Below are positions 234 through 15,189 of a stretch of 15,189 bases of DNA, piece by piece (the stretch's first letter is position 1; every line of letters begins with the position of its first letter). The notes beneath the pieces are model-generated. The model worked only from the letters and a program-made list of their open reading frames with translations. It made no database searches and was not told where the DNA came from. A program made the position numbers and the translations under genes. The stretch comes from a virus. Its lineage: Duplodnaviria > Heunggongvirae > Uroviricota > Caudoviricetes. The stretch lies in IMG/VR virus record IMGVR_UViG_2651869755_000008. The stretch is one strand, 5' to 3'.

Positions 234-1214
234 TTATTCAACAAAGCCCACCCTGGGCATGAAAACAAAATGCAGTTTTTGCTTTTCGGTTCTGCCGTAC
301 TCCCGATGATAAAAGGTGATTTCGCTTTTGCGATGATGCCCGGTCAGTTTGTATTGCTCCTTCAGTGCTTCAAGAGCAGGCTGCAGTAGTGTTACTGTCC
401 GGATCCCGGCATTTGTTTTTGGGGGACCGAACATATCAAGTATCGTCAGGTTTCTTCTGACATTCACTATTCCCTTTTCGAGATCCACATCCTCCCACGC
501 CAGAGCTGCCAGTTCCCCGTGACGAAGTCCTGAGTAAACTGCAAATTTCCACATGTTCTGGCTCTGTCCTTTTTCACTTTCCATTAATGCATTGAATTCT
601 GTTTTAGATAACGGATCAGGCTTTATTCTGTTTCGCTGTAATTTTTTTACTCCTTCAAATGGTTTGGTTGATATAAATCCCGACTGATACGCAAAACGTA
701 ACAGCGAACAGAGCAGGGCGATATAGTTATCAACTGTGCGCACGGTTCTTCCTTTTTTGTTGGATCTTGGATTATCCAGGTAAAGCGTTTCTCCATGCAG
801 CAGTTCATTCCGGTAGTTTAAGATATCGCTATAACGAATATGTGATATCAGGGTACTTTCACAAATTATTATTCTGAGTGTTTTTAATTGTGATTTCGTT
901 TTCTTCATTGTGTTTGTTGTTAACTCTGTCTCTTTAATTTTTGTCCAGATATCACAAAGCTCTCCGAACGTTTTTATGACTCTCGTTGTCACCATTTTTG
1001 CCCCAGTGCTGGACTGGGGAAAACGTCTTAAATACTCAAATTCACCGGAGTTTATTTCATGAACTATCAGCGCTCTTAAATTTCCGGCCTTTTTAATATT
1101 ACTGTTTGTAATCTCCCAGCCTTTTAATGTTTCCCGACATCGTTTTCCTCGAAACATGAACCAGATGCGAATGTATCTACCTCTAATCTCGACACCTGTT
1201 GGTAATTTAGACAT
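234..1214 (-). CDS. intR: Phage tyrosine integrase (Rac IntR-like), apparently C-terminally truncated at 326 aa
   Basis: ORF-track protein has an integrase N-terminal arm-binding region and the box I motif VYSGLRHGELAALAWEDVD. The HxxR and catalytic Tyr motifs expected about 60-90 aa further on are absent, and I found them in no minus-strand frame of 1..233. Start ATG at 1214 lies 1 nt after the xis stop. Confidence 0.75.
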   Translation of the reverse strand: MSKLPTGVEIRGRYIRIWFMFRGKRCRETLKGWEITNSNIKKAGNLRALIVHEINSGEFEYLRRFPQSSTGAKMVTTRVIKTFGELCDIWTKIKETELTTNTMKKTKSQLKTLRIIICESTLISHIRYSDILNYRNELLHGETLYLDNPRSNKKGRTVRTVDNYIALLCSLLRFAYQSGFISTKPFEGVKKLQRNRIKPDPLSKTEFNALMESEKGQSQNMWKFAVYSGLRHGELAALAWEDVDLEKGIVNVRRNLTILDMFGPPKTNAGIRTVTLLQPALEALKEQYKLTGHHRKSEITFYHREYGRTEKQKLHFVFMPRVGFVE

Positions 1215-1215
1215 A

Positions 1216-1431
1216 TCATGAGTCTTTGATAAACTGATTTATCTTTGGATAGTTGTACCAGATAATCCCTCGTTTGCTGTCTGGCTTACCTAAAGGAGAT
1301 ACTCGTTTGAAGTGGAAGCCCTCCACCCAACAGTTCTGGCGGTATGCTTCAATTTGTCTGGCCCCCAGACCAGTGCGAAGCATCAGGCCGTATTCAACCA
1401 TCCACTCTTCATTAAAGATTACTTGTGCCAT
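1216..1431 (-). CDS. xisR: Excisionase-like small protein (YdaQ/XisR-like), 71 aa
   Basis: Internal ATG at 1431 preceded by GAGGTGA; the ORF-track N-terminus begins with TTG at 1455 and has no SD. Product [15 protein letters not shown]... is 71 aa, matching my recollection of Rac YdaQ. Sits immediately upstream of int in the same orientation. Confidence 0.75.
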
Positions 1432-1530
1432 CGCATCACCTCTGGCAGGCGCCAATGTTAGACTGAAATTGACGCCCGATGTTGATTATTAATAATCAGC
1501 TATGAAGTTTTAATTTGAATACAATGCAAT

Positions 1531-1719
1531 TCACGAGGACTGAAGTTTCTCGCAATTAAAATTTATCAGTTTTACTTTCTGCTCTCTGGAAACGCCTGCT
1601 TCTTTTTTACCTGAGAGCATTTTTTCGCATTCTGATTTCGTTAGTTTAGATTTTGAATATCTTGTCCAGTTAGTAGGAGTGCCACCTTCCTTTTCAATAG
1701 TGGCGGTAATTTTATACAT
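1531..1719 (-). CDS. ydaC: Small prophage protein, YdaC-like (start uncertain)
   Basis: ATG at 1719 preceded by GGAGGTG 5 nt upstream; overlaps the ralR stop by 8 nt. The longer 86-aa ORF-track version would overlap ralR by 80 nt. Position between xis and ralR matches Rac order. Confidence 0.55.
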   Translation of the reverse strand: MYKITATIEKEGGTPTNWTRYSKSKLTKSECEKMLSGKKEAGVSREQKVKLINFNCEKLQSS

Positions 1720-1906
1720 GAACACCTCCGTTATTATTTCCAGTGGTTCGTTTATTCCATCTTTCGAGTGCTTCTTTTTCACTTCCACCATAACCGGTTC
1801 GGGATTCGCATCCGTTACACTTCGCTCGGTAATATCCTGAAATGACTTTCACCGTTACTGATGGACAACCACAAAATGGACATGGTTTAACATTGTCATA
1901 TCTCAT
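1712..1906 (-). CDS. ralR: RalR (Lar) restriction-alleviation protein; toxin of the RalR/RalA type I toxin-antitoxin pair
   Basis: Product MRYDNVKPCPFCGCPSVTVKVISGYYRAKCNGCESRTGYGGSEKEALERWNKRTTGNNNGGVHV (64 aa) with a CxxC...CxxC motif, recognised as Rac RalR. The ORF track extends 13 codons upstream (start 1945); the internal start is chosen to fit the known length. Confidence 0.85.
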   Translation of the reverse strand: MRYDNVKPCPFCGCPSVTVKVISGYYRAKCNGCESRTGYGGSEKEALERWNKRTTGNNNGGVHV

Positions 1907-1962
1907 AATTTTTCTCATAAAAAATATTTCAAGTTGGCGGTGCATTACACCGCCAGGCTGAA

Positions 1963-2772
1963 TTATTCCTCTGAATTATCGATTACACTGTATTCCCCGG
2001 TTAATACAGAGGAATCTGCAGGATCGATTGTCAGTGGTTCCTTTTCATCCATTGATACTGCACGCTGGATCTCAATTGATACGGGCAGATATTTGAACAG
2101 GCGACGAATAGCCGTTTTCTTTGCCATTTCTTCCCAGTGAGTTACCCACGGCCCGTTATTACCAGCTTTACTCAGGCTGCGCACCAGCTCAATCTGTTTG
2201 CGCGTCATAACTTCAAACTGAGTACCTCCGTCTTTCAGTCTTGCGACAGCATAGACGTGGGTAACCGGGGCATCTTCGTTTTCTCCCGGGCGGTGTATTA
2301 ACTTTTCATCAAGGCCAAATTCGAAGCTAAACTCGTCACCTTCACGGACAACACGGGCTGACAGGCTGGCGATTTGACCAGAACGGCGAGCCAGATCAAT
2401 CATGCCGCGATAGCCAATGATTAGCTGAACGTTCTTTTTACCGCTCTTTTCGTTTTTATTACCAAAAGGCAGTAAATATGCATGACCGAGGGCGCTACCT
2501 GGCTCAAGTCCGAGCTGTGAACACTGTACGATCGCACTGACAAAACTCATAGTGTCACAGTTTCCTAACGCCGGAACTTTACGAATTTCTGTGGTGGCGA
2601 TACGGATCATACGTTCAGCCGTCATATGGCGTGGAAGAGCTGCTGCCAGTTGCTCTTTCATTGATGGCTGGTTAATAAAACTAATCACGTCGCTATTTTT
2701 AACTGCTGCTGGTGCACGGTTTCCCTGAGTTTTTTGCAGATCGGCTTTTGCGATTGGTGGTTGCTTAGTCAT
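1963..2772 (-). CDS. recT: RecT single-strand annealing recombinase, 269 aa
   Basis: Product from [21 protein letters not shown]... recognised as RecT. ATG at 2772 preceded by AAGGAA; overlaps the recE stop by 8 nt, the classic recET arrangement. Confidence 0.95.
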
Positions 2773-5365
2773 TTGCATATTCCTTAGCCCAGCGGGGCAG
2801 TGATAATGTCTTAATAGCTGGCCATTCATCGGTATTCAGGCAGTCAGACAGGGTTCGCAGATTGCGGTGATATTCCTGTTGACCTGCCAGTTTTGCTTCT
2901 TCGCCCATCATGAAAATTTCAACCGGATAACGTCCGCATTCAATAGTTGTGCTGGCAACCAGAAAAACGAAAGTTGGCTGCACTCCAAACTGTGCTTCAT
3001 AACCGTCACTGTAGAATGCATCCTGAACGTGATAGCGGTAGTCGTAATAAGCGGTTTTGAATCGTTGAATATCCGCCGTAGTTTTCACGTCCATGATCCA
3101 GTGAAATTCAGGGATAATTTTGTCCGGACGGCACCGACACAAAATTCCTGTTTCAGGATCTTCCCAGTAAATTGATGATTCAGCGTGTCCGGCGCTTTCA
3201 ACAAGCCATTGCCCCAGCGGCAAAGCCATAACGCTTTGATACATGAGTTCAATTTTCCGGCCTTCTTCCGCAGTGATAACCGTTTTTCCTGTGCTTGCGC
3301 ATTCCATCAGAAACGCTTTCTCTTCTTCTTTTCCGGCGTTTGTACGGCGGTTAAATTCAGGTGCTACGATAAAGCGGTTACTGAATTCTTCCGGTTCAAG
3401 TACCCGGCAGTGGAAAGCGGTTCCTAAATCGAGCGTTTTTGTCTTTGTGGTGTCCACGGGGGCATTTTTACGCCACAAATATAGTGCCGGAGTATCAGCA
3501 ATGTCATCGAGCTGAGACTTACTGACACCGGGACCCGCGTGGTAATTCTCATTCGAAATTCCGTAATAAATACCTGGCTCTATGTCTTCTACGATTACGG
3601 GATCTGCGACTTCGCCAGTTTCATCACTGCAATCGCGATGCGGATCGCTGCCAGCATTCTCATTGTGCGGATGTTCAGCGCCTTCCATTTCCTCCGGATC
3701 ATTTTCCTTAGCTTCAACCTGACTCTCTTCATCGAATGTTTCCTGGTATGTTGCGTCGCCCATCACCGCACCACAGTCAGGGCAGTTATCCCCGCCAGTC
3801 TGGCCGCAGGCATTGCAGGCTATTTCCGGTTCCTGTTGCACTACTGGCTCAGGTTGATTCATATCCGGGCTGGTTTTTTCCGTTTCTGGCTGGTTCTGGT
3901 ACACACAATCGCGAGTCTGGATCCCCTTTACCCATTTCGGATCGTTCGGGTCGCTAATTCCGTCAACAAATTCACCACGTGATGCAGCAAGCAATTTATC
4001 GGCATCGACAGGATTTTTTGATGGAATGTTTTTCCGGGCTTCATGGAGTTCTGCCCGCAGTTCCTGATATTTCGCATCAACAGAATTTACCTGTGACTGA
4101 GCATCCAGCGGCTGCGTGTCCTGATGATGTTCAGTTGCGTCCGGTTCCATTGTTTCAGCCTCTCCCTGTTCAACTGCCGTTGTTCCAGATGGTTGCGGTT
4201 TTTCTTCATCATCCTGTTTTCCTTCTTCTGTTACTCGCTGCGGCATCGGGGCAGAGGAGCGACCGCAGGCAATATCCACGATTTCCGGATCAGGGTTGGC
4301 ATGATCGGTTTCAGTCAGTACTTTGTTCAGATATTCAGTGACGTGCGCGGGGATGACCTCGATCCCAATTGGTGCTTCTTTTACGGACGCAACCACGATG
4401 GCGCGGGAATAATCCAGCCCGCCAGGCATGGTGATGAATTTGTCGCGGAAAACAGAAAAGGGCGGTTTATTTTCAGCGATAATTTCCTCAATGCGTTTAG
4501 CGTGTGCCGGATGAAGGTTATAGATGTCCAGATCCATTGAACGGGCCAGTACGCCAGTGGCTACGTCGCGCGCCAGTGACGTCAGATCGTGTACGAAACC
4601 TTCGCCGCGATCGGTGAGGTTTCCGCCGCCAGCATTAGCACCGGAAGCCGTGCGAGTGATGTGTGAAACACGATTACCCTTCATCCACTCTTTTGTCAGC
4701 AGTCCTCGATCGGTGTAGTCAGCGTTCAGGTATGCTTCGAAAAAAGCAGTTATCAGTCCCAGGTTTGAATTACCAGGATTAGGGAAAACTTTGTCAGTGT
4801 CACGAACCAGTTTGTGGAGTTCGCGAATTTCCAGCGGGTCGAGCAGGCTGGTTTTGTGGGAAACAGCCAGAGCAGTAACAGCCGGTAGTTCTTCAGCCCG
4901 AGCAATGTGTAATGCCTGGAGTCCGTCGCGTGAAACGTGCGTTACCGGTTTTTCGCTGCCGTGTTGAGCAAGCCAACGAATGGGCAGTTCCTGGCCAGAA
5001 ATTGGGAGTAGCATATTCTCCTCAATCTCAGTCATGTCTTCGCCGTTGACGTTGGTATTGCCTTGATAGTGAGCGTTGTCTGGTGCTGCTCCCGGTTTTA
5101 GTTCCCATGTCATGGAGTCTTTGCTGAGTTGATAGCGTTCACTCCAGGTAAAATCGATCTCACCTTCAGCGGGCAGGTCATTAACGACAGGAAAATTCGT
5201 GGCAACAGCTTTAAAATAGCTGCTCAGTTTTTTACCTGACTTAACGATCAGGTAGTCCAGAGTGGCACAGGTCGATTCAAAATCGTTGCTTGCCCACAGG
5301 ACGACGTCAGGTTCACCGGATGATTTTTTCGCTTTCCGTAACAGGAAGAGTGGTTTTGTGCTCAT
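2765..5365 (-). CDS. recE: RecE exonuclease VIII, 866 aa
   Basis: The 866-aa ORF with a long acidic low-complexity middle region and a C-terminal nuclease domain is recognised as Rac RecE; the length matches my recollection. Immediately upstream of and overlapping recT. Confidence 0.95.
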
Positions 5366-5466
5366 TGTTTTTTAACCTCAACTCAGATTAAAATTCGTTT
5401 TGTTCAGTGAATGATCTTGCCGGATACACACTGTTCATAGCCTGCGCCATACGCAGGCTATTTCTT

Positions 5467-5742
5467 TCAGATTTCACCTTTTAATTTCATTGCAATTAGA
5501 GTTGCCAGAAATTCGGCTTTTTTTTCTGCGGGCAGATTTTTTCCGATATGCACCAGGCACATTTTTTTGACACCTTCATCAAGTGTTTTTACGTTGCCTG
5601 ATGGACCATCGATATCAACCACAGTGAATGGGGTTTCTTTATTTTCTGTTTTAATTACGTAGCCAATGCGCTTTCCTTCCAGATTCACCTCGTGAACAAT
5701 GTCATCGGTAGTTACAACAGTGGCTTCATAATTGGTAATCAT
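5467..5742 (-). CDS. racC: RacC, 91 aa, function unknown
   Basis: Internal ATG at 5742 preceded by AAGGAG; product MITNYEATVVTTDDIVHEV... recognised as RacC. The ORF track adds 16 upstream codons with no SD. Confidence 0.8.
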   Translation of the reverse strand: MITNYEATVVTTDDIVHEVNLEGKRIGYVIKTENKETPFTVVDIDGPSGNVKTLDEGVKKMCLVHIGKNLPAEKKAEFLATLIAMKLKGEI

Positions 5743-5816
5743 GTTTTTCTCCTTAATTAAGGTTGAGCGAATACCTGCCATTTCTGGCATAAATTCAGTT
5801 TCGAATAGTCAATTAA

Positions 5817-5987
5817 TTAAAGTTCATGTGCCATCTGGTCTTTTTCGGCACAAGCTTCACTGCAATATTTTCTCGGTTCGTCTTTTGATAAAATCCCGTG
5901 CATGAAGTGAAGCATTCTTTCAATAGCTTTGCTTTCTTCAACGTCTTTTTTGCAAAGGTGGTAAGCACATTTTATTTTCTTAGTCAT
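5817..5987 (-). CDS. ydaE: YdaE small Cys-rich (zinc-binding type) protein, 56 aa
   Basis: Hand-translated minus-strand [59 protein letters not shown], below the ORF-track length cutoff. Its ATG overlaps the kilR TGA stop (TGATG), suggesting translational coupling. Confidence 0.75.
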   Translation of the reverse strand: MTKKIKCAYHLCKKDVEESKAIERMLHFMHGILSKDEPRKYCSEACAEKDQMAHEL

Positions 5988-6208
5988 CACCATGACTCCG
6001 CCTTTACAGGTAAACCATCACGACCGAGGAAGACTTTAATCATGCGGTCAGTAATGAATGTTTTTGTGGTCAGGTTACGAATATATAGTTTTCGCTTTTT
6101 AATATTGTTTGCCGAGGCAATATATGTCCGGCCTTCATGAAGAACATAATCGCCAGGAGTCACACACTGACGTGGTATTTCATCAGTTCCGAAGTGATGT
6201 GCAATCAT
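5987..6208 (-). CDS. kilR: KilR, FtsZ-targeting cell division inhibitor, 73 aa
   Basis: Product [38 protein letters not shown]... recognised as Rac KilR. ATG at 6208 has GGAGAT 5 nt upstream; the ORF-track ATG at 6220 has no SD. Confidence 0.85.
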
Positions 6209-6389
6209 AATTATCTCCATTTTTACAAATGAACTTTGTTGATGCGGTGTCTGGTGCCTCCAGGTGACTGCAACCAGTTAACAATTACAGTCGGCTTTCC
6301 CACCCAAACCAATAAGGACTAACATGACTTTTAACTGTGCCACGTGCGCTTAGCCGCATTCACCGCATCACAAAATTCACTTTAAAAAG

Positions 6390-6431
6390 GGCGGACATCA
6401 GCCGAACTTCAAGAAAAAAACTGATGCCGCC
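6390..6431 (-). terminator. Intrinsic-terminator-like hairpin on the minus strand, upstream of kilR
   Basis: Minus-strand RNA would read GGCGGCAUCAG - 19-nt loop - CUGAUGUCCGCC followed by CUUUUUAAA: an 11-bp stem with one bulge, then a U5 tract. The plus-strand version has no U tract. The loop is longer than in typical terminators. Confidence 0.4.
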
Positions 6432-6649
6432 AGGACTACACACAGCAATGTCGTTATTTACAACCGGAGGCGCACTCCCACCATTTAAATTTAACAGACA
6501 AGACCGACTCTTTATGGATATCGGAAATGCGCCTTCGTGTTGTGCCCGGTTTTATTTCACCACCTCCGGGCTTCGGTGGTCTCGGCTATACCCCTACAGC
6601 GAGAGCTTGTGTTAACATTTCAATACCCTTACAGTTGAGAGTTATTGAT

Positions 6650-7138
6650 ATGTTGGATGTATTTACTCCATTGTTGAAACTTTTTGCTAACGAGCCACTC
6701 GAAAGACTTATGTATACGATTATCATTTTTGGTCTCACTCTCTGGCTGATACCGAAAGAGTTTACTGTCGCATTCAATGCTTATACTGAAATACCTTGGC
6801 TCTTTCAGATTATCGTTTTTGCCTTTTCTTTCGTGGTCGCCATTTCCTTCTCAAGATTGCGAGCACATATTCAAAAGCATTATTCATTACTACCAGAGCA
6901 ACGAGTATTGCTTCGTTTATCTGAGAAAGAAATCGCTGTATTTAAAGATTTCCTTAAAACAGGAAATCTTATTATCACTTCTCCTTGCCGTAACCCGGTT
7001 ATGAAAAAATTAGAACGGAAGGGCATCATTCAACATCAGAGTGATAGCGCAAACTGTTCTTATTATCTCGTCACCGAAAAATACTCCCATTTTATGAAAT
7101 TATTCTGGAACAGCAGGAGTAGACGTTTTAATCGTTAG
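6650..7138 (+). CDS. sieB: SieB superinfection exclusion protein, 162 aa, membrane
   Basis: Internal ATG at 6650; product MLDVFTPLLKLFANEPLERLMYTIIIFGLTLWLIPKEF... has two hydrophobic segments and is recognised as Rac SieB. The 203-aa ORF-track version begins at an upstream start inside the untranslated region. Confidence 0.85.
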   Translation: MLDVFTPLLKLFANEPLERLMYTIIIFGLTLWLIPKEFTVAFNAYTEIPWLFQIIVFAFSFVVAISFSRLRAHIQKHYSLLPEQRVLLRLSEKEIAVFKDFLKTGNLIITSPCRNPVMKKLERKGIIQHQSDSANCSYYLVTEKYSHFMKLFWNSRSRRFNR

Positions 7139-7290
7139 CTTACTGTGTGCTTCTCCAACCATCGGCGCGCACCAGTTTCGGTTTTAAATGTTTTGCTTTT
7201 GGTATACGTCATGGCAGTGAACGTTCCATCCTGGTTGGGGAACACGCCGCACACCAGGGATTCGTTGTTGCCGAGGTCGATTTTTTGCAT
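7135..7290 (-). CDS. ydaF: YdaF small protein, 51 aa
   Basis: Hand-translated MQKIDLGNNESLVCGVFPNQDGTFTAMTYTKSKTFKTETGARRWLEKHTVS*. Length and position (between sieB and racR, minus strand) match Rac ydaF. Its 3' end overlaps the sieB stop by 4 nt, convergently. Confidence 0.7.
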   Translation of the reverse strand: MQKIDLGNNESLVCGVFPNQDGTFTAMTYTKSKTFKTETGARRWLEKHTVS

Positions 7291-7313
7291 TTTGCGAATC
7301 TCACATCTTGTTG

Positions 7314-7436
7314 CTACGTATAGCGACTTCTGCCTGCCAGAGATCCTAGTCGTTGCTGCGTAAAGCCTGCACAGCCTGGTTGTAAGTGATACCGCAACAA
7401 TCCATCAAATACTGAACTACTTCGTAATGCACCATC
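7314..7436 (-). CDS. ydaG: YdaG-like small protein, 40 aa
   Basis: Hand-translated MVALRSSSVFDGLLRYHLQPGCAGFTQQRLGSLAGRSRYT* with a strong SD (AAGGGGAG) 5-6 nt upstream. Position matches Rac ydaG, but the length (40 versus a recalled 44 aa) and identity are not verified. Confidence 0.45.
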   Translation of the reverse strand, partial: DGALRSSSVFDGLLRYHLQPGCAGFTQQRLGSLAGRSRYT

Positions 7437-7603
7437 TTATCTCTCCCCTTAACGCCGGGTGGCGGAACTAACTGCTGCACTGCAAAATTTGAATCCCGCC
7501 GTCATGTTCATACGCCTCGGGCTGGCTACTTAACCCCTGACCACTGCCTGGTAACTCGAAGTATTGCCCGGCGTTCTGTGGGGCGGGGTGGGTTGGTAGG
7601 TAT

Positions 7604-7648
7604 ATAATGTACTTTATGTTCATCATTGTAAAGTACTTTAAGTACATT
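7604..7648 (-). promoter_or_regulatory. Candidate leftward promoter flanked by ATGTACTT-type palindromic motifs
   Basis: On the minus strand, TTTACA (plus 7627..7632), a 17-nt spacer, then CATTAT (plus 7604..7609). The site is overlapped by ATGTACTT (7607..7614), the palindrome AAGTACTT (7633..7640) and AAGTACAT (7641..7648). Called by eye only. Confidence 0.3.
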
Positions 7649-7722
7649 TTATGTATAAAAAAATGAGACGGGATAAAGTGAAGCACAAACCCGGAGGGGG
7701 ACGCTACCGGATTTATGCTGGT

Positions 7723-8142
7723 TTAAGAGGCTTTTTGTTTTTTCTTTCGTGCTAACTCTTCGTAAATTGCATTGTACTTCTGTTTTTTCTCCTCAAGAGT
7801 TTTTAAAAGTTCATCTGTCTCACTGTCAGGGAGCTCGTCCAGAAGGTCAATGATGATTTTTTGTCTTGGATTTAACTCCTGATAGAAACGTATCTGTCCA
7901 CTTTCTTCTGTATCCTCTCCCAAAAGATAGGTTGGTGTTGTTCCAATGAGTGTTGCTAATTCCCTTAATTTCTCTCGGCGAGGAATTGTTTCACCATTAA
8001 ACCATTTGCTAACCGCTTTTGGTGTTAATTTCATTCGACGGGCAATTTCTGCCTGCCTTCCATGTTGTTCATAACCAGCGTTTTCACAGGCTAGCGCAAG
8101 CCTACTGGCGAACTCTTTACGCGCTTTATCTTCATGAACCAT
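7723..8142 (-). CDS. racR: RacR-like prophage repressor with an XRE-family HTH, 139 aa
   Basis: N-terminal HTH-like segment (QAEIARRMKLTPKAVSKWFNGETIPRREKLRELATLIG), no LexA-like peptidase domain, divergent from ydaS-ydaT as in Rac. No in-frame ATG upstream before a stop. Confidence 0.8.
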   Translation of the reverse strand: MVHEDKARKEFASRLALACENAGYEQHGRQAEIARRMKLTPKAVSKWFNGETIPRREKLRELATLIGTTPTYLLGEDTEESGQIRFYQELNPRQKIIIDLLDELPDSETDELLKTLEEKKQKYNAIYEELARKKKQKAS

Positions 8143-8221
8143 AAGTTCAATGATATTCGCTCTTGAATGTACTGTCAGTTCTGTTATAGCATGTACTCAA
8201 AGTTCACATTGTGAGGATGAT
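8143..8221. promoter_or_regulatory. Divergent racR / ydaS promoter-operator region
   Basis: 79-bp intergenic region with repeated motifs: AAGTTCA at 8143..8149 and 8200..8206, ATGTACT at 8167..8173 and 8191..8197. The placement mirrors a lambda OR-type switch region. Confidence 0.55.
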
Positions 8222-8476
8222 ATGAACCAGAAAACACTTGAAGATGTAATCAAAACTGTTCGCGTTTCTGTTGTGGCCGACGTTTGTGGTGTCAGCCAAA
8301 GAGCAATCTACAAATGGATGGATAACGGAAAATTGCCTCGCACAGAATATACCGGCGAAACAAATTACGCTGAAAAAATCGCTCATGCATCAAACGGATT
8401 ATTTTCTGCCGATGCAATTTTAACTATTGGCAGAAATAAAACTACTACGAAAAAGCTGATGGGAGTTGATTCATGA
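8222..8476 (+). CDS. ydaS: YdaS-like Cro/HTH protein, 84 aa
   Basis: ATG at 8222 with GAGG 6 nt upstream; HTH-like VADVCGVSQRAIYKWMDNGKLP. Its stop overlaps the ydaT start (ATGA). The ORF-track N-terminal 24 codons have no SD. Confidence 0.75.
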   Translation: MNQKTLEDVIKTVRVSVVADVCGVSQRAIYKWMDNGKLPRTEYTGETNYAEKIAHASNGLFSADAILTIGRNKTTTKKLMGVDS

Positions 8477-8895
8477 AAATCAAGCATGAGCACATCGAAT
8501 CAGTGTTGTTAGCCCTGGCAGCCGAAAAAGGGCAGGCGTGGGTCGCTAACGCAATTACTGAAGAATATCTGCGCCAGGGGGGCGGCGAATTGCCCCTGGT
8601 ACCAGGCAAGGACTGGAACAATCAGCAGAATATCTATCATCGTTGGTTGAAAGGTGAAACGAATGCGCAAAGGGAAAAAATTCAGAAACTGATCCCTGCG
8701 GTTCTGGCAATTCTTCCTCGCGAGCTGCGTCACCGACTCTGCATCTTCGATACCCTGGAACGCCGTGCATTACTGGCGGCACAGGATGCACTGAGTACGG
8801 CAATTGATGCGCATGATGATGCAGTCCAGGCCGTTTACCGTAAAGCACATTTCAGCGGCGGCGGTTCTCCTGGCGATTCTGTCGTAGTGCATTGA
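8473..8895 (+). CDS. ydaT: YdaT, 140 aa, co-transcribed partner of YdaS
   Basis: The 140-aa product MKIKHEHIESVLLALAAEKGQAWVANAITEEYLRQ... matches my recollection of Rac YdaT in length and position; translationally coupled to ydaS. Confidence 0.8.
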   Translation: MKIKHEHIESVLLALAAEKGQAWVANAITEEYLRQGGGELPLVPGKDWNNQQNIYHRWLKGETNAQREKIQKLIPAVLAILPRELRHRLCIFDTLERRALLAAQDALSTAIDAHDDAVQAVYRKAHFSGGGSPGDSVVVH

Positions 8896-8939
8896 TTGAA
8901 ATTAATCGTACCGAACTGTTTTGTTCGGTATCAGTTAAA

Positions 8940-8960
8940 TGTAACGCTGCGAGCGTTACA
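8940..8960. repeat. Palindromic iteron-like site TGTAACGCT-gcg-AGCGTTACA
   Basis: Perfect 9-bp inverted repeat with a 3-bp spacer, 13 bp upstream of the ydaU start. Confidence 0.6.
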
Positions 8961-8972
8961 AGGTGAAAACAA

Positions 8973-9761
8973 ATGGCTTCAAACTGGATAAAGCTCGAAG
9001 TTATTACGCCGGATAAGCCGGAAATATTCAGGCTTGCTGAGATTCTGAATATTGATCCAGATGCCGCATTAGGGAAAGTCATTCGCTTCTGGGCATGGGC
9101 GGATCAACAAATGATAGACGGTAACGCAGAGTGTAACGCTCGCGGCGTTACAAAAAGTGCAATAGATCGCATCACTTTTATGGCTGGTTTTGCTGATGCG
9201 TTAATTCAGGTTGGATGGCTGGTCGAAACTAATGGTGTGTTGTCGCTTCCTAACTTTGAGCGCCATAACGGGAAAAGCTCTAAAAAACGGGCGGTTACAA
9301 ACGAGAGAGTAACAAAAATACGAGAACTGAAACGAAAAGGTAACGCTGCCAGCGTTACAAAAACGGATCAAAAAGCGTTACCAGAGGAAGAGAAAGAGGA
9401 AGATATAAATACTTATCTCCCCCTAAATCCCCCTCGCCAAAAACGAGCGTCTAAAAAATTCGAACCGGAGGCTATCGAGCTGCCTGACTGGTTGCCGGAA
9501 ACACTCTGGCATGAGTGGGTTCAGTTCAGGCAGGCATTGCGAAAACCGATTCGAACGGAGCAGGGCGCTAACGGGGCGATACGGGAGCTGGAAAAATTCC
9601 GCCAGCAGGGTTTTTCACCTGAGCAGGTGATTCGACACAGCATCGCCAATGAATACCAGGGCTTGTTCGCGCCAAAAGGTGTTCGACCTGAGACGTTACT
9701 CCGACAGGTTAACACCGTCTCGTTACCGGATAGTGCGATCCCGCCAGGCTTCAGGGGGTAA
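8973..9761 (+). CDS. ydaU: YdaU-like replication initiation protein (lambda O analogue), 262 aa
   Basis: Sits directly upstream of the DnaC-like gene in the lambda O/P arrangement; AAGGTGA SD. Contains palindromic repeats inside the coding region. Family assignment is from memory of Rac YdaU. Confidence 0.75.
   Translation: MASNWIKLEVITPDKPEIFRLAEILNIDPDAALGKVIRFWAWADQQMIDGNAECNARGVTKSAIDRITFMAGFADALIQVGWLVETNGVLSLPNFERHNGKSSKKRAVTNERVTKIRELKRKGNAASVTKTDQKALPEEEKEEDINTYLPLNPPRQKRASKKFEPEAIELPDWLPETLWHEWVQFRQALRKPIRTEQGANGAIRELEKFRQQGFSPEQVIRHSIANEYQGLFAPKGVRPETLLRQVNTVSLPDSAIPPGFRG
9132..9152. repeat. Palindromic iteron-like site TGTAACGCT-cgc-GGCGTTACA, inside ydaU
   Basis: Near-perfect copy of the 8940 palindrome; a GGTAACGC half-site lies at 9120..9127. 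Confidence 0.6.
9339..9359. repeat. Palindromic iteron-like site GGTAACGCT-gcc-AGCGTTACA, inside ydaU
   Basis: Third copy. Further half-site-like GTTACA / GTAACA at 9293..9316. Confidence 0.6.
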
Positions 9762-9767
9762 CTGACC

Positions 9768-10514
9768 ATGAAAAATATTGCGGCAGGCGGCATTCTTGAA
9801 CGTATCCGCAGACTGGCCCCGCCACATGTAACCGCCCCATTCAAAACGGTAGCGGAGTGGCGCGAGTGGCAACTTTCCGAAGGCCAGAAACGTTGTGAGG
9901 AGATCAACCGTCAGAATCGTCAGTTGCGGGTGGAAAAAATTCTGAATCGCTCTGGCATCCAGCCATTGCACCGCAAATGCTCGTTTGCGAATTACCGGGT
10001 GCAGAACGACGGTCAGCGATACGCGTTGAACCAGGCGAAATCTATCGCTGATGAACTGATGACCGGGTGTACAAATTTTGCGTTCAGCGGAAAACCTGGT
10101 ACCGGAAAAAACCATCTGGCGGCGGCTATCGGGAATCGCCTGCTGAAAGATGGCCAGACAGTGATTGTGGTTACCGTGGCTGATGTCATGAGTGCTCTAC
10201 ACGCCAGCTATGACGACGGGCAATCAGGCGAAAAATTTTTGCGGGAACTGTGCCAAGTGGATCTGCTGGTTCTTGATGAAATTGGCATTCAGCGCGAGAC
10301 AAAAAACGAGCAGGTGGTGCTGCACCAGATTGTTGATCGCCGGACAGCGTCGATGCGCAGCGTGGGGATGCTGACAAACCTGAACTATGAGGCGATGAAA
10401 ACATTGCTCGGCGAGCGGATTATGGATCGCATGACCATGAACGGCGGACGCTGGGTGAATTTTAACTGGGAGAGCTGGCGTCCGAATGTCGTCCTGCCAG
10501 GAATTGCGAAGTGA
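9768..10514 (+). CDS. ydaV: DnaC-like helicase loader / replication protein (YdaV), 248 aa
   Basis: Walker [12 protein letters not shown] and Walker B LLVLDEIG in an AAA+ DnaC/IstB-like context; directly follows ydaU. Confidence 0.85.
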
Positions 10515-10536
10515 TTTTTACCGGGAGGAAATTTTA

Positions 10537-11298
10537 ATGGAGACTGTTTTTGACGCACTGAAAGCAATGGGAAAAGCCACGTCGGTAGAACTGGCTGCGC
10601 GACTTGATATCAGTCGTGAAGAGGTACTGAACGAGCTGTGGGAACTGAAAAAGGCTGGTTTCGTTGATAAAAGCGTATACATCTGGCGTGTGGCTGATAA
10701 CAACGTTCAGCAGGAACAGCCAGAGCAGGCAGAACTGCCGGAAGAAACCACCACGGCAACAGTCGCAAAAATTTCGGAGTGCGATTTAACTGCGACGATT
10801 GAACAACGTGGCCCACAAACGGCGGATGAACTGGCTACGTTTTTCGGCATCACATCACGCAAAGTGGCTTCAACGCTGGCAATGGCAATCAGTAAAGGTC
10901 GTCTGATTCGCGTTAATCAGAACGGTAAATTTCGTTACTGCATGCCGGGCGATAATTTACCAGCAGAGCCGAAAGCTGCATCGGTAGCGGAAACTGATGG
11001 TAAAGCCTTTCCTCAGCCAGCCGGTGTTGCGTTACCAGCACAGGAAGCGGCAACACAGGAAGAAATTAAAACAGATACTATGGGGGACATTGTGCAGTCA
11101 CTACCATCGTTCACTGAAACGCGAGCCAATGACCTGATTTTACCATCGCTGCATATGGCAAACCGCGAACTGCGCCGGGCGAAAAGTCATGTCCAGAAGT
11201 GGGAGCGAGTCTGCGCCGCGCTGCGTGAGTTGAACAAGCACAGGGATATTGTACGACAGATTACTGATTCTTCCCGCCATGTTGCATCGGAAAAGTGA
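10537..11298 (+). CDS. Prophage protein with two winged-helix-like repeats (DUF977/YdaW-like), 253 aa
   Basis: ATG at 10537 with GGGAGG 8 nt upstream. Two similar HTH-like segments ([28 protein letters not shown] and [32 protein letters not shown]). Family name is a recollection, not verified. Confidence 0.55.
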
Positions 11299-11313
11299 TT
11301 GCCGGAGGCACCT

Positions 11314-11643
11314 ATGGCAAAAGTATTTACACCAGAAGAGCGGGAAAAAATTAAAGGGCAGGTTGTTGAACTTGTACGTCTGAGCGGTCGCGAGACGTTA
11401 CGGGCTCTGGAGGCTAAAACCGGTGCATCAAGGTATTACATAAGCACTCTTGCCAGAGAACTGGTCGCCAGTGGTGATGTTTACAATTCTGGCTACGGAT
11501 TATTCCCGTTTGAGCAGGCGCGTAAAGACTGGCAAAACGCCCGCAAAAAACTATCAAGGGCAAAGATGAAGAAACCGGTTGTGGTAGATCCAAACCTAAT
11601 CTGGTCATTACCTGATGGAGAAATCCGTCGCCTTAGTCTTTGA
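11314..11643 (+). CDS. Hypothetical small prophage protein, 109 aa
   Basis: ATG at 11314 with GGAGG 5 nt upstream; normal GC and codon usage; last gene before the AT-rich island. No recognisable family. Confidence 0.5.
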   Translation: MAKVFTPEEREKIKGQVVELVRLSGRETLRALEAKTGASRYYISTLARELVASGDVYNSGYGLFPFEQARKDWQNARKKLSRAKMKKPVVVDPNLIWSLPDGEIRRLSL

Positions 11644-11678
11644 TACTATGTTTATAATGTTGAAAAAGAGTCTAATAG

Positions 11679-11708
11679 TTGACATTGTATGAAATATGAT
11701 TGTTATAT
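11679..11708 (+). promoter_or_regulatory. Candidate sigma-70 promoter for the island gene
   Basis: TTGACA at 11679..11684, 18-bp spacer, TTATAT at 11703..11708, about 40 bp upstream of the 11745 start. By eye only. Confidence 0.3.
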
Positions 11709-11744
11709 AAAATGATTTTTTTGGAGACTGTTTAAGGTAAACAA

Positions 11745-12548
11745 ATGAAACCAGAATACTTAAGGAAAATAGAATCATTGCAACGTGAGGTTGATGATTT
11801 CCATCCAGTGCTAAGAGCGCTTCTACCACGTTTGCCGACTGTTACACATGTTGAATATAAGCAAGGACCATCAGAAAAAGGTGCTGATTTTGTCATAATT
11901 AAACGAGATGAGGCATTAGATGAGGAAATATATATTGGGGTTATTTGTAAGGTTGGAAAGATAATTCAGTCAAATAGTGAGGTCGAACGACAAATAGAAG
12001 AGTGTCAATTATACCCACGCTTTATTTCTTCTGGCTCTAAGAACATACATTTGAATGAAATTTGGGTTGTTACTAATTCATCAATCTCAAATAATGCTCA
12101 AGAAAAAATCTACTTAAAATTCAAATCTACAAATATAAAGTTTATAGAAGGTGAGAAAATATGTTCTTTAATCAGTAAATATTACCCAGAGTTTTGGGAT
12201 TTCGAATCCATTAATTATGAGCAATACTTAACAGATACATTGCAAACCATAAGTGATACTCCTGAAAGTTCTTTTTTTGGTAGTGTTGGCATAAATAACC
12301 TTATTGATAGATATGTAAGCAAGGAAGATCATAAAAAACGCAGGCACAGGCCGTTAAAACTGTATAGTGTTGTGAGAGCCGAGAGATTTATTTTTTTAGA
12401 GGGAACTGTTGGCTCCGGGAAAAGTACTTTGCTGAAACAGCTAATTAAAAAAATAAAAGAAGAATATTCTTACGAAAAAGACTACATCCTTCCAGTATTT
12501 TGCCAATACAAGGATGTTCTAGAAAAAAACTCAATATTGAAAATATAA
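11745..12548 (+). CDS. N-terminal part of a frameshifted Mrr-like nuclease / NACHT NTPase gene (Mrr-like domain plus Walker A)
   Basis: AAGGT SD. N-terminal ~150 aa resemble the Mrr-cat restriction-endonuclease fold (VLRALLPRL...KGADFVII...SEVERQIEEC...NEIWVVTNSSISNNAQEKIY...NIKFIEGEKICSLI). Walker A GTVGSGKST lies near the C-terminus. The frame ends 6 codons after an A7 run. Confidence 0.75.
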   Translation: MKPEYLRKIESLQREVDDFHPVLRALLPRLPTVTHVEYKQGPSEKGADFVIIKRDEALDEEIYIGVICKVGKIIQSNSEVERQIEECQLYPRFISSGSKNIHLNEIWVVTNSSISNNAQEKIYLKFKSTNIKFIEGEKICSLISKYYPEFWDFESINYEQYLTDTLQTISDTPESSFFGSVGINNLIDRYVSKEDHKKRRHRPLKLYSVVRAERFIFLEGTVGSGKSTLLKQLIKKIKEEYSYEKDYILPVFCQYKDVLEKNSILKI

Positions 12549-14002
12549 TACAAAGTGTATTAAGTAAGTACAAAATACAACATGATGGGAATATTTTATT
12601 AATTGTTGATTCGGTGGATGAAGTAAAGGAATCACTTGAGGAAAGGCAAAACAACTTCAGGGACATTGTAGAGAAAGTATCCAGGAGTGATAAAGTTCGA
12701 TTACTAGTTGCTTCAAGAATTATGGACTCTCTTCAGGACTATGAAGTTATCGATCAGATGTTTGCAAGATACTCGATAATACCACTTAGCACAGGTCAAA
12801 TAATCGACTTTGTAGATAAAATCTGCAATGACATTAAAATAACAAACAAGCTTAAGAATGGTATAGAAAAAACACCACTATTTAAATTCATTCCCAGGAC
12901 TCCAGTGAGTGCTATTCTTCTAGCAAGAATACTCTCTGATGAGATTAAAGAATTACCATCTACAATGACAGAACTATACTCAAAATACAGTGAGATAGTA
13001 TTGGGACGATGGGATACATCTAAGGGATTATTATCGCAAACAGAATATGATGTAATAAGTAATATATTAGTAGAAATTGCGATGTTTATGATGGATAACT
13101 CTCTAAACTGCATATCAATTTCTGAAGTGCAGGACATGTTTTTAAATTATTTGGCCAAAAGAAACTTGAATGTTGATGAGGACAAACTTTTCAAAAGACT
13201 AATTTATCGCAGTGAAGTAACAACAGTTAATGTTAGAACTAATACGTTCTCATTTCTACACAGATCATTCATGGAGTATTTTTACGCTGAAGGACTTAGG
13301 AAGCGTGGCTTAATAGACATAAATGATAATATTTATGATATTTATTGGGCAAATAGTTATTTCTTCTATTTTGGTTTATTAAGAGACAATGAATATCTTA
13401 TTGATAAAATTAATGAACTTAAACCTAGTAACGATAAAACAAGATTTTTAAGGTTATTTTATAACGGTTCTTTTTATTTGGCTTCATATCTAACTCCGTA
13501 TAAAAAAATAGCAAGGGGAGTCCTTTTATCATATATAGATGCAGGTAAATTATATGTTGATATTCTCCATGGAAATACCGACATCCCGCTGAAGGAGTTT
13601 TCACCAGTAGCTCTTCTTTGTATTTTTACAAAGTGTTTAAGTAACAATTACGCATATGATTTTTTCAAATCTGCCTTGGAAGACTTGTCAGTTCAAATTG
13701 AACAATATGAGGAAATTGGGGAACATATTGATTATGCACGTTTCTTCATAGCATCAACACTGAATGAGCTCGGGGATAAATCCGCATTTGATAGCTTAGT
13801 GGAAAAAAATAAATTAGGTGTTTTGATTAATTTAGGGATAACTCACGTTACAGACGACTCAGGGCTACTAAGTACTACGGTTGATAAGTACCTGAAAAAA
13901 TTCAATAAAAAAGTACGAAGTAACCATGATATGTCTAATTATATATCTAAGTTATATGAGGAATCTACTGGTTCCTTACGTACAAACCTACAAATTCAAT
14001 AA
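12500..14002 (+). CDS. C-terminal part of the same gene (NACHT Walker B to C-terminal helical domain); frame differs from 11745..12548
   Basis: NACHT-type Walker B LLIVDSVDE, sensor-1-like RLLVASR, TPLF / PRTPVSAILLARIL, and FSFLHRSFMEYFYAEG matching the conserved NACHT motif seen in NLRs. The only start before these motifs is the TTG at 12500 with no SD, so independent translation is unlikely. Confidence 0.75.
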   Translation: MPIQGCSRKKLNIENIIQSVLSKYKIQHDGNILLIVDSVDEVKESLEERQNNFRDIVEKVSRSDKVRLLVASRIMDSLQDYEVIDQMFARYSIIPLSTGQIIDFVDKICNDIKITNKLKNGIEKTPLFKFIPRTPVSAILLARILSDEIKELPSTMTELYSKYSEIVLGRWDTSKGLLSQTEYDVISNILVEIAMFMMDNSLNCISISEVQDMFLNYLAKRNLNVDEDKLFKRLIYRSEVTTVNVRTNTFSFLHRSFMEYFYAEGLRKRGLIDINDNIYDIYWANSYFFYFGLLRDNEYLIDKINELKPSNDKTRFLRLFYNGSFYLASYLTPYKKIARGVLLSYIDAGKLYVDILHGNTDIPLKEFSPVALLCIFTKCLSNNYAYDFFKSALEDLSVQIEQYEEIGEHIDYARFFIASTLNELGDKSAFDSLVEKNKLGVLINLGITHVTDDSGLLSTTVDKYLKKFNKKVRSNHDMSNYISKLYEESTGSLRTNLQIQ

Positions 14003-14013
14003 TAAATAGATTG

Positions 14014-14048
14014 TCACATTGAAGGTAACGTATCGACCTTCAATGTGA
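14014..14048 (+). terminator. Rho-independent terminator-like hairpin after the NACHT gene
   Basis: Perfect 13-bp inverted repeat TCACATTGAAGGT / ACCTTCAATGTGA with a 9-nt loop, followed by TTATTATCCTCTT; 12 bp after the stop. Confidence 0.5.
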
Positions 14049-14941
14049 TTATTATCCTCTTAATAATATAGCCTAGGCTACTTTCGACTTTCTGAGGCAC
14101 AGAGATTGCAGAATGTATCAATCATAGTGAAGCTATCGTAAATGTCCGCACGTTTCTACAGATAGTCAGATTTGAGTGAACTGCCTCCGCAAAATGCTGG
14201 TTGGGGCCTGACTTAATACATCTGAAGAAGTGTTGGTTATGTTTGGCTGTTATGAATCAGATAATTGATATGTTGATTAGAGGAGAAGATAGAATCAACA
14301 TGGTTGTTTTTCGTATAACTATTTGTTTTACTTTTAGTTTATGCATTCTGTGTGTTAGGAGTAAGTTATTAAAGTTTAACCAAAAAATCTTGATGTCGTC
14401 CACATAGATTACTGTTACTGAACCTTATTGTGTGCATTAGTTGTGTTTTGAAATTTCAATTTAATTATTTATGATGTGTATTTTTAACGATAAATGTTTT
14501 CTGGGTAAAAGACAGTGGGGGATGAGATAGGCAATATATCATTAATCTTGATTATCTCCAGGATGCCTTTACTGTTCATATAAATAAATCACATGCGCAT
14601 CAAGTAATGTAAAGGCATCCTTTTAGTTATATCTTATTAAATGTTAATGCTTTGAGTGGAAAACATGATTCCAGCAATTATCATATGGCTACTTTATAAA
14701 AATAATGCCCATATAAAACAACAAGTGAAAAGGATTACGGATAAAAAAGGAGCGAGATGTGCAAAGTTGTTATTTTCCATGTTTAACCACCTTAAACAAT
14801 TGATGATGACGGGATGATTGCATCTGCAATGCTTTTATTGAAATGTTATGATAAAAAAGAACTTTTTCATAACATTAAAATGCAATTTATCTAATCGTTT
14901 TTAATAATAAGTGTGGTATTTCTATCCTTGTACCAGCTATT

Positions 14942-15189
14942 TAGACTGGCCCCCTGAATCACCAGACAACCAATATCACTTATTTAAGTGATAGTCTTAA
15001 TACTAGTTTTTAGGCTAGTCATTGGAGAGCAGATGATTGATGTCTTAGGACCGGAGAAACGCAGACGGCGTACCACACAGGAAAAGATCGCAATTGTTCA
15101 GCAGAGCTTTGAACCAGGGATGACGGTCTCCCTCGTTGCCCGGCAACATGGTGTAGCAGCCAGCCAGTTATTTCTCTGGCGTAAGCAAT
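14942..15189 (+). mobile_element. Left end of an IS2-like insertion sequence (IS3 family), continuing past the window edge
   Basis: TAGACTGGCCCCCTGAATC...CCAGACAACCAATATCACTTA matches my memory of the IS2 left terminal inverted repeat, followed about 90 bp later by the insC start. Confidence 0.8.
15033..15189 (+). CDS. insC: IS2 OrfA (InsC) transposase N-terminal HTH part, partial (52 codons to window edge)
   Basis: Hand-translated [52 protein letters not shown], recognised as the IS2 InsC N-terminus. Confidence 0.8.

Follow-up and report, generated by a model that had tools for sequence, protein, structure and literature searches.

A frameshifted bNACHT25 anti-phage cassette in a variable slot of a Rac-like Escherichia coli prophage

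bNACHT25 of Escherichia coli ECOR11 (WP_001702659.1) is described in the literature as belonging to clade 6 of the bacterial NACHT proteins and as combining an Mrr-like PD-(D/E)XK DNase at its N-terminus with a NACHT module and a C-terminal NCH1 domain (Conte et al. 2025, PMC12169576; Kibby et al., bioRxiv 10.1101/2022.07.19.500537). According to the same texts, infection sets off DNA degradation, a D48A substitution kills the defence, hyperactive mutations of the NLR type (nucleotide-binding leucine-rich repeat) are toxic and activation by the MS2 coat protein requires the host chaperone DnaJ; phage protection (MS2 and DNA phages) and DnaJ-dependent activation are published for the intact allele only (PMC12169576; bioRxiv 10.1101/2022.07.19.500537). 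Neither a Rac-prophage location of the gene nor a frameshift polymorphism is mentioned in the available parts of these papers (PMC12169576; bioRxiv 10.1101/2022.07.19.500537). Defence hotspots are well known from prophages, those of P2/P4 being one example (Rousset et al. 2022, PMC9122126). We analysed a tailed-phage record of 15,189 nucleotides (IMG/VR record IMGVR_UViG_2651869755_000008; the whole of it is called the window below), in which an AT-rich stretch between the replication module of a Rac-like prophage and the left end of an IS2 insertion sequence (IS), at 11644 to 14941, carries a copy of bNACHT25.

We read this stretch, with high confidence, as the accessory ('moron') slot that a lambdoid, Rac-like prophage at ttcA carries and that holds bNACHT25 as a single-gene anti-phage cassette, in a copy that is frameshifted and most probably inactive, with IS2 as a later arrival. 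The identity of the gene, the boundaries, the distribution, the frameshift and the IS2 insertion come from the present analysis, whereas defence activity and mechanism are taken from the literature. Judged by its sequence, the gene in the window is the known and experimentally characterised bNACHT25. An intact coding sequence of 752 amino acids (aa) at this locus, in E. coli LC-1302-2020 (L001) and in L009 (L numbers denote the loci compared), was annotated by the Prokaryotic Genome Annotation Pipeline (PGAP) as WP_001702659.1, and the island DNA of the window is identical to that of L001 outside a single run of A residues. The earlier note on this DNA had recognised one NACHT gene; the gene is indeed present, but as two open reading frames (ORFs) split by a frameshift that the note had missed. 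The features of the region are as follows.

11314-11643, plus strand: truncated ren-like (DUF977) gene; 105 native codons to 11631, then Leu-Ser-Leu-stop from the inserted module; full length 140 aa.
11632-14251, plus strand: bNACHT25 cargo module, 2.6 kb, 32% GC, made up of an upstream region, the gene and a 0.25 kb tail; no flanking repeats.
11745-12548, plus strand: bNACHT25 fragment 1, 267 aa; Mrr-like PD-(D/E)XK nuclease with D48 and Walker A motif GSGKST; Pfam Mrr_cat and NACHT N-terminus.
12523-12529, plus strand: A7 homopolymer, A8 in the intact gene; site of the 1-nucleotide deletion.
12500-14002, plus strand: bNACHT25 fragment 2, a mechanical ORF of 500 aa whose homologous part begins after the A-run; Pfam NCH1 133 bits.
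14014-14048, plus strand: perfect 13-bp hairpin, 12 nucleotides past the stop codon; fold -20.3 kcal/mol, z = -4.4.
14235-14692, unstranded: AT-rich (30% GC) segment; its 93% counterparts are confined to Rac-like prophages and phages whose slot is of the 'KilA-N / Hok / DUF1971' type.
14693-14941, plus strand: upstream leader of ninB (DUF1367), 28.5% GC, shared at 76% with other Rac-like slot types; IS2 lies about 125 bp before the ninB start.
14937-14941, unstranded: IS2 target site CTATT, duplicated on the far side of the element, beyond the window.
14942-15189, plus strand: left end of an IS2 variant, with the left terminal repeat and orfA from 15034; only the first 248 bp are in the window.

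The intact 752-aa form matched the Pfam NACHT (37.2 bits) and NCH1 (132 bits) profiles, and both domains are present in the window, on two ORFs and not on one polypeptide. Residue 48 of the first ORF is the aspartate of a GADF motif, and Pfam Mrr_cat matched residues 22-143 of this ORF weakly (E = 6e-4, just under the curated cut-off). A sequence search of the PDB yielded no solved relative. Relative to the A8 run of L001, the window has lost one nucleotide at 12523-12529, and the frame that starts at 11745 reaches a premature TAA at 12546-12548. The first ORF thereby keeps the nuclease and Walker A (GSGKST), and the second holds Walker B (LLIVDSVDE), the remaining NACHT and NCH1. Since the frameshift leaves the nuclease and Walker A on one ORF and Walker B with the sensor on the other, this copy of the signal transduction ATPase with numerous domains (STAND) type is most probably non-functional, its NTPase being split between the two Walker motifs.

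Several points weigh against this reading. PADLOC v2 gave only weak P-loop matches on the intact protein and no bNACHT or Avs model; the protein is therefore assigned to defence through its identity in sequence with the published one, and not through a profile match. A tblastn search of bNACHT25 against 50,697 phage records gave no match. A scan for promoter consensus sites returned no more than expected by chance. Low-level restoration of the frame by slippage may occur, and the frameshift may be a homopolymer sequencing error in this particular assembly.

The frameshifted allele was found well beyond the window. Exact matches to the 267-aa fragment were present on 195 contigs, to the 500-aa fragment on 124 and to the intact protein on 117, so that A7 is at least as common as the intact allele in public assemblies and the frameshift is not a one-off assembly error. 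The module as such was carried by more than 600 contigs of public E. coli assemblies. Among 27 loci of the 99.9% allele, A7 and A8 were each seen on all four sub-backgrounds, distributed as listed.

Background W haplotype with IS2: A7 in the window, L019 and L021; A8 in L001, L009/L025, L026, L027, L031 and L002.
Background W without IS2: A7 in L017; A8 in L030.
Background G haplotype with the 14568 deletion: A7 in L014 and L015; A8 in L028.
Background G without the 14568 deletion: A7 in L008, L016, L018 and L020; A8 in L007, L023, L024, L029 and L032.

At least four tract changes are needed if there was no recombination, among sequences only a handful of single-nucleotide polymorphisms apart; the counts of these polymorphisms are biased by the retrieval of the loci through exact protein matches. 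The 97% allele of M8-type prophages has A8 in L003 and A7 in L035, which brings both tract lengths to at least five backgrounds. The recurrence of A7 points to a hypermutable tract or to repeated selection for loss, and our own reading is that a costly gene was inactivated again and again, most easily at the A8 run.

The alternative that survives best is that the A-run is a contingency switch resembling phase variation, A8 on and A7 off by strand slippage, and that the window holds the off state and not a dead gene. The spread of both tract lengths over closely related backgrounds, the appearance of A7 on the 97% allele and the contig counts all speak for a switch, as does the run itself; A8 is the longest homopolymer of the gene, is kept in the 97% allele and is missing from an 82% homologue in Enterobacter, and the length of this coding homopolymer varies among very close relatives, as in a phase-variable contingency locus. 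One-way loss, however, is fitted equally well by irreversible lesions in the same gene, namely a T7-to-T8 change in L002, an A7-to-A8 change at a second run in L034, IS1 inserted in L018, a truncation associated with IS1 in L006, an IS3 copy at the 5' end of the gene in L007 and a truncated gene in L020. The tract changes, moreover, can be read in either direction from the data, co-resident Rac variants could recombine with one another and so imitate recurrent mutation and produce the four-gamete pattern, A7 calls in some long-read assemblies may be homopolymer errors, and a run of 8 nucleotides is short by the standards of classical phase variation. A switch is thus a possible but doubtful account, and we would place somewhat lower still its fuller form, in which the A8 run is a hypermutable on/off site where natural E. 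coli populations repeatedly turn a costly DNA-degrading NLR-like defence off, and perhaps on again, with A7 perhaps keeping leaky full-length expression. Read in the zero frame, the A7 allele contains A-AAA-AAC, which is a canonical -1 slippery heptamer, and an AAGGA motif resembling a Shine-Dalgarno sequence lies 9 nucleotides upstream; a -1 shift or a transcriptional slip adding one A would restore the frame. The A8/A7 polymorphism is the only point of the locus that might repay further work.

It is improbable that the frameshift arose in assembly through a miscalled homopolymer and that the gene is intact in this strain. Over 15 kb, the only differences from L001 are this 1-nucleotide homopolymer indel and one C/T inside a T-run, a pattern that long-read consensus errors typically produce. 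The same 267-aa and 500-aa fragments, however, come from many projects and several backgrounds, the 267-aa fragment is a long-standing non-redundant RefSeq protein (WP_001774426.1), and three loci (L019, L021 and L017) match the window at 100% over 11300-14941, A7 included; the A7 allele therefore certainly exists.

The surroundings of the gene identify it as exchangeable cargo. A count over 5426 complete E. coli genomes gave about 18 with the NACHT module and at least 1026 with the DUF1627-DUF977 backbone at 80% coverage or more, so that the module is found in less than 2% of the backbones. Between the conserved flanks, DUF1627/DUF977 on one side and DUF1367/DUF1364/DUF1133 on the other, six different contents were found among seven prophages and one phage. 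Six Rac-like prophages other than that of the window were sampled, and five of them carried other cargo between the same flanks. The contents from DUF977 to DUF1367, or to the nin genes that correspond to it, were these.

Strain 7/2 (L004): a 167-aa hypothetical protein, a KilA-N protein whose C-terminus is BstA-like, Hok/Gef and DUF1971.
FDAARGOS_1059: sce7726 with a 'beta protein' matching PD-Lambda-2_C, and Hok.
O157:H7 MB41-1: a Dcm methyltransferase, an O-methyltransferase and a GHKL-type ATPase.
Strain B1: small ORFs and hokD.
VTB96926v: an 816-aa P-loop NTPase on the opposite strand.
M8: the 97% NACHT allele and hokD.

In this handful of sampled loci, PADLOC matches among the alternative cargo comprised the PD-Lambda-2_C-like beta protein with sce7726, the BstA-like protein and the Dcm methyltransferase, and several other cargo genes had no match. 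The sce7726 and 'beta protein' pair matching PADLOC PD-Lambda-2_C lies at 7937-9572 of L010, the KilA-N protein with the BstA-like C-terminus at 5111-5884 of L004, and an 816-aa P-loop NTPase, uncharacterised, bearing an HSDR_N-like nuclease motif and matched by no PADLOC model, at 7333-9783 of L013. The ren-like gene was complete in prophages with other cargo and cut exactly at the module edge in every NACHT locus in which the junction was preserved. We found no description of this Rac slot in the published literature, our coverage of which was incomplete.

The composition of the stretch is also distinct. The fraction of guanine plus cytosine (GC) was 0.319 over 11632-14941, compared to 0.461 in the Rac backbone (249-11631) and 0.503 in the adjacent replication module (binomial z = -16.4 for 11632-14941), and the lowest value of any backbone stretch of 3310 bp was 0.416. 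In sliding windows GC stayed near 0.50 until about 11550 and then ran at 0.28-0.35 up to the IS2 end, with a minimum of 0.22 among 200-bp windows. GC at third codon positions (GC3) was 0.27 in the NACHT gene, 0.60 in ydaV and 0.47-0.60 in neighbouring genes. The AT-rich stretch is therefore real, as is the abrupt change after the 109-aa gene that the earlier note had pointed out, and it is swapped-in anti-phage cargo of a Rac-like E. coli prophage.

That a horizontally acquired defence cargo fills a variable position, as the same note had proposed, is supported by the rarity of the module, its foreign composition, the truncation of the ren-like gene, the different contents of the slot and the validated anti-phage activity of the intact form; the comparison with other Rac-like prophages, which the note had called for, showed differing and not uniform content. 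An origin as ancestral Rac sequence lost by other lineages, for which it can be said that the Rac prophage of K-12 did lose the whole region by deletion, is very improbable given the exact cut of a ren-like gene that is complete beside other cargo, the low GC3 of the NACHT gene and the presence of the module in so few backbones.

The 3.3 kb are not one unit and, on sequence comparison, consist of a 2.6-kb cargo module and 0.7 kb of phage spacer. On the left, the stop codon of the 109-aa gene does lie at 11643, but similarity to prophages with a full 140-aa DUF977 gene (L004, L010 and L011) already ends at 11631, which places the true edge at 11632, inside the 109-aa gene. This gene matched only positions 1-99 of the 134 in the Pfam DUF977 profile, and PGAP labels it 'incomplete, missing C-terminus' in L001, L003 and L008. 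On the right, the M8-type NACHT prophage (L003) is similar as far as 14251 and goes on from there with a hokD segment, and the '7/2-type' prophage (L004) is similar from 14235 onwards; the two parts overlap in a 17-bp microhomology, GGTTATGT...GCTGTT (14235-14251). No terminal repeats, inverted or direct, turned up in a search around the NACHT module, which therefore lacks a transposon-like structure.

At 93%, the segment 14235-14692 was shared by about 460 genomes and by phage records of Rac-like type (vB_EcoS-666R9, -673R7 and -613R10); in these phages a DUF1971 gene precedes its counterpart. The following 14693-14941, together with about 125 bp past the IS, is the ninB leader, shared at 76% with M8-type and VTB96926v-type prophages. 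Of the 3.3-kb island proposed as a single unit, the NACHT module thus stands as foreign DNA and the last 0.7 kb (14235-14941) as prophage backbone or another module, although its own GC is also low (0.29-0.30). The roughly 0.9 kb of mostly non-coding AT-rich DNA described after the gene was confirmed as 14003-14941 (939 bp). Its small ORFs (68 and 53 aa) had no Pfam or PHROG match, and Rfam at a permissive threshold gave zero matches over 11500-15189, so that neither hok/sok nor another known RNA is recognisable in the spacer. The hairpin at 14014-14048 is, from its structure and position, the likely transcription terminator of the cargo gene, although a simple terminator consensus scan did not call it.

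Two further elements were observed in this part of the stretch. A small hydrophobic ORF at 14252-14407 (plus strand; MNQIIDMLIRGEDRINMVVFRITICFTFSLCILCV...), whose first 43 codons are conserved in L004 and in phage vB_EcoS-666R9 (hypothetical protein), had no Pfam or PHROG match and could be a small membrane peptide or a toxin-like gene. A perfect 13-bp inverted repeat with a 36-nucleotide loop, followed by a T-rich stretch, lies at 14560-14621 in the backbone spacer (fold z = -2.7) and may serve as a terminator or bind a protein upstream of ninB.

The IS2-like end at 14942 was present as described, with the terminus TAGACTGGCCCCCTG..., and belongs to a simple later insertion in the ninB leader. 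The same insertion was found in nine loci (1331 bp, CTATT on both sides), two of which (L019 and L021) were 100% identical to the window across the island, and four IS-free loci read ccagCTATTtgatatg at the empty site; the search for a target-site duplication around a complete copy, which the earlier note had recommended, thus returned a clear 5-bp duplication. The element was 97.6% identical to copies annotated as IS2. Sequence across it was contiguous in L004, and IS-free islands were found in L017 (identical to that of the window) and L030 (with an intact gene), the 97% allele lineage being also without IS2. IS2 therefore came after the island, with no rearrangement, and the suggestion that the island was shaped by IS-mediated events is contradicted by these observations. 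Although IS2 abuts the island and several IS copies are present in the prophage, it is highly unlikely that IS2 brought the island as part of a composite transposon or reshaped it through IS-mediated deletions or inversions, given the perfect duplication in nine loci, the contiguous flanks in L004, the islands and the allele lineage without IS2, and the lack of both a second IS2 beside the module and terminal repeats. The insertion may separate ninB-Q from upstream transcription.

The prophage is Rac-like and located at ttcA, and from position 249 to its end the window differed from L001 by one mismatch and one gap over 14,942 bases. The gene order begins with intR, xisR, ralR, recT, recE, racC, kilR, sieB, repressor/cro-like genes and ydaT, and continues with a 262-aa replication protein, ydaV, the DUF1627 gene, the DUF977 gene, the island and IS2; after IS2, L001 carries DUF1367, DUF1364 and DUF1133 (Q-like), then lysis genes and trkG. 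By PHROG assignment DUF977 is a Ren-like exclusion protein (PHROG 142) and DUF1367 a NinB/Orf homologue, and the island therefore sits at the ren/nin junction of a lambdoid genome. The K-12 order given in the earlier note (ydaV, a ydaW fragment, rzpR/rzoR and trkG, none of them recognised in the island) calls for correction, and K-12 Rac is a poor reference for this region. K-12 ydaW comprises no more than the 5'-terminal 501 bp of the DUF1627 gene, at 92% to 10486-10986 of the window, and a lysis pseudogene follows it directly; in the window the DUF1627 gene is complete upstream of the island (10486-11298); the lysis genes and trkG lie 6-8 kb past the end of the window in the near-identical genome, and K-12 Rac carries a deletion from the DUF1627 gene to rzpR that removed the whole island region.

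Further observations concern the prophage outside the island. The window begins inside an IS5-family (IS903-like) element that ends at 248 and interrupts the Rac integrase gene intR (249-1214, minus strand), of which codons 1-322 of 411 remain; intR is intact in L001, and the prophage of the window strain is probably unable to excise. The sole substitution relative to L001 is at 5539 (T in the window, C in L001), inside a T-run of the gene annotated racC in L001 (window 5467-5742), so that both differences between the two sequences, the A-run indel and this C/T, are homopolymer-associated. The 262-aa protein at the replication-initiator position (8973-9761) had no Pfam match, and other Rac variants with the same NACHT island have YdaU (DUF1376) there. 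The repressor/cro modules also vary among carriers, a pattern of extensive module shuffling around an almost invariant island.

We infer the following course for the acquisition of the cassette and its loss of function. The cassette would have entered its slot, which is bounded by ninB on one side and by the replication module with the ren-like gene on the other, through illegitimate recombination or recombination at short homology, an event in which the ren-like gene lost its last 35 codons, and a second recombination at the 17-bp microhomology would have joined it to the spacer of another slot type. The IS2 variant would later have transposed into the ninB leader, and in the copy of the window the loss of one A from the A8 run would have set nuclease and Walker A apart from Walker B and the sensor. 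By the published mechanism, the NACHT-NCH1 part of the intact protein, a STAND/NLR-type sensor, responds indirectly to infection via the host chaperone DnaJ and activates the N-terminal PD-(D/E)XK DNase, leading to DNA degradation and growth arrest of the infected cell.

The gene is already known, so the novelty is low, and the island is otherwise ordinary prophage mosaicism. The analysis places a well-studied bacterial NLR-like immune gene in its natural setting, a swap-in slot from the ren-like gene to ninB of Rac-like prophages. In the wild the gene is often broken, mostly at one A8 run, which bears on the cost of abortive-infection nucleases. It also bears on how defence repertoires are read from annotation, as a pipeline would call this copy a 'NACHT domain protein' though it is probably inactive.

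Compared to the described bNACHT25, the window holds the same gene with the same architecture (PD-(D/E)XK/Mrr-like nuclease with D48, NACHT and NCH1), but in a copy frameshifted at A7 and split between Walker A and Walker B. bNACHT32 and a homologue on an Enterobacter plasmid (L036) are 81-82% identical to bNACHT25 and have the same three-domain layout. The plasmid homologue, the single relative outside E. coli in a contig-wide scan of genomes, is encoded at 6001-8262 of L036 (Enterobacter adelaidei plasmid pECC3473_02; 82%). It forms an island of one gene at 33% GC, set between an IS5-family transposase and a PIN/MazE-type toxin-antitoxin pair, and its nucleotide homology to the window is confined to the ORF. 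It is thus, like the copy in the window, a low-GC single-gene cassette on a mobile element, but on a plasmid and not in a prophage, and it lacks the A8 run. The inserted element agrees with IS2 (IS3 family) in its length of 1331 bp, its 5-bp duplication and its two-ORF transposase with a programmed frameshift, and differs as a slightly divergent variant that PGAP labels only 'IS3 family'. The slot itself shares with the P2/P4 hotspots and the lambdoid ren-nin region conserved flanking phage genes and interchangeable cargo of foreign composition, some of it defence-like; it differs from the P2/P4 hotspots in phage family and in position, which here runs from the ren-like/DUF977 gene to ninB/DUF1367 of Rac-like phages.

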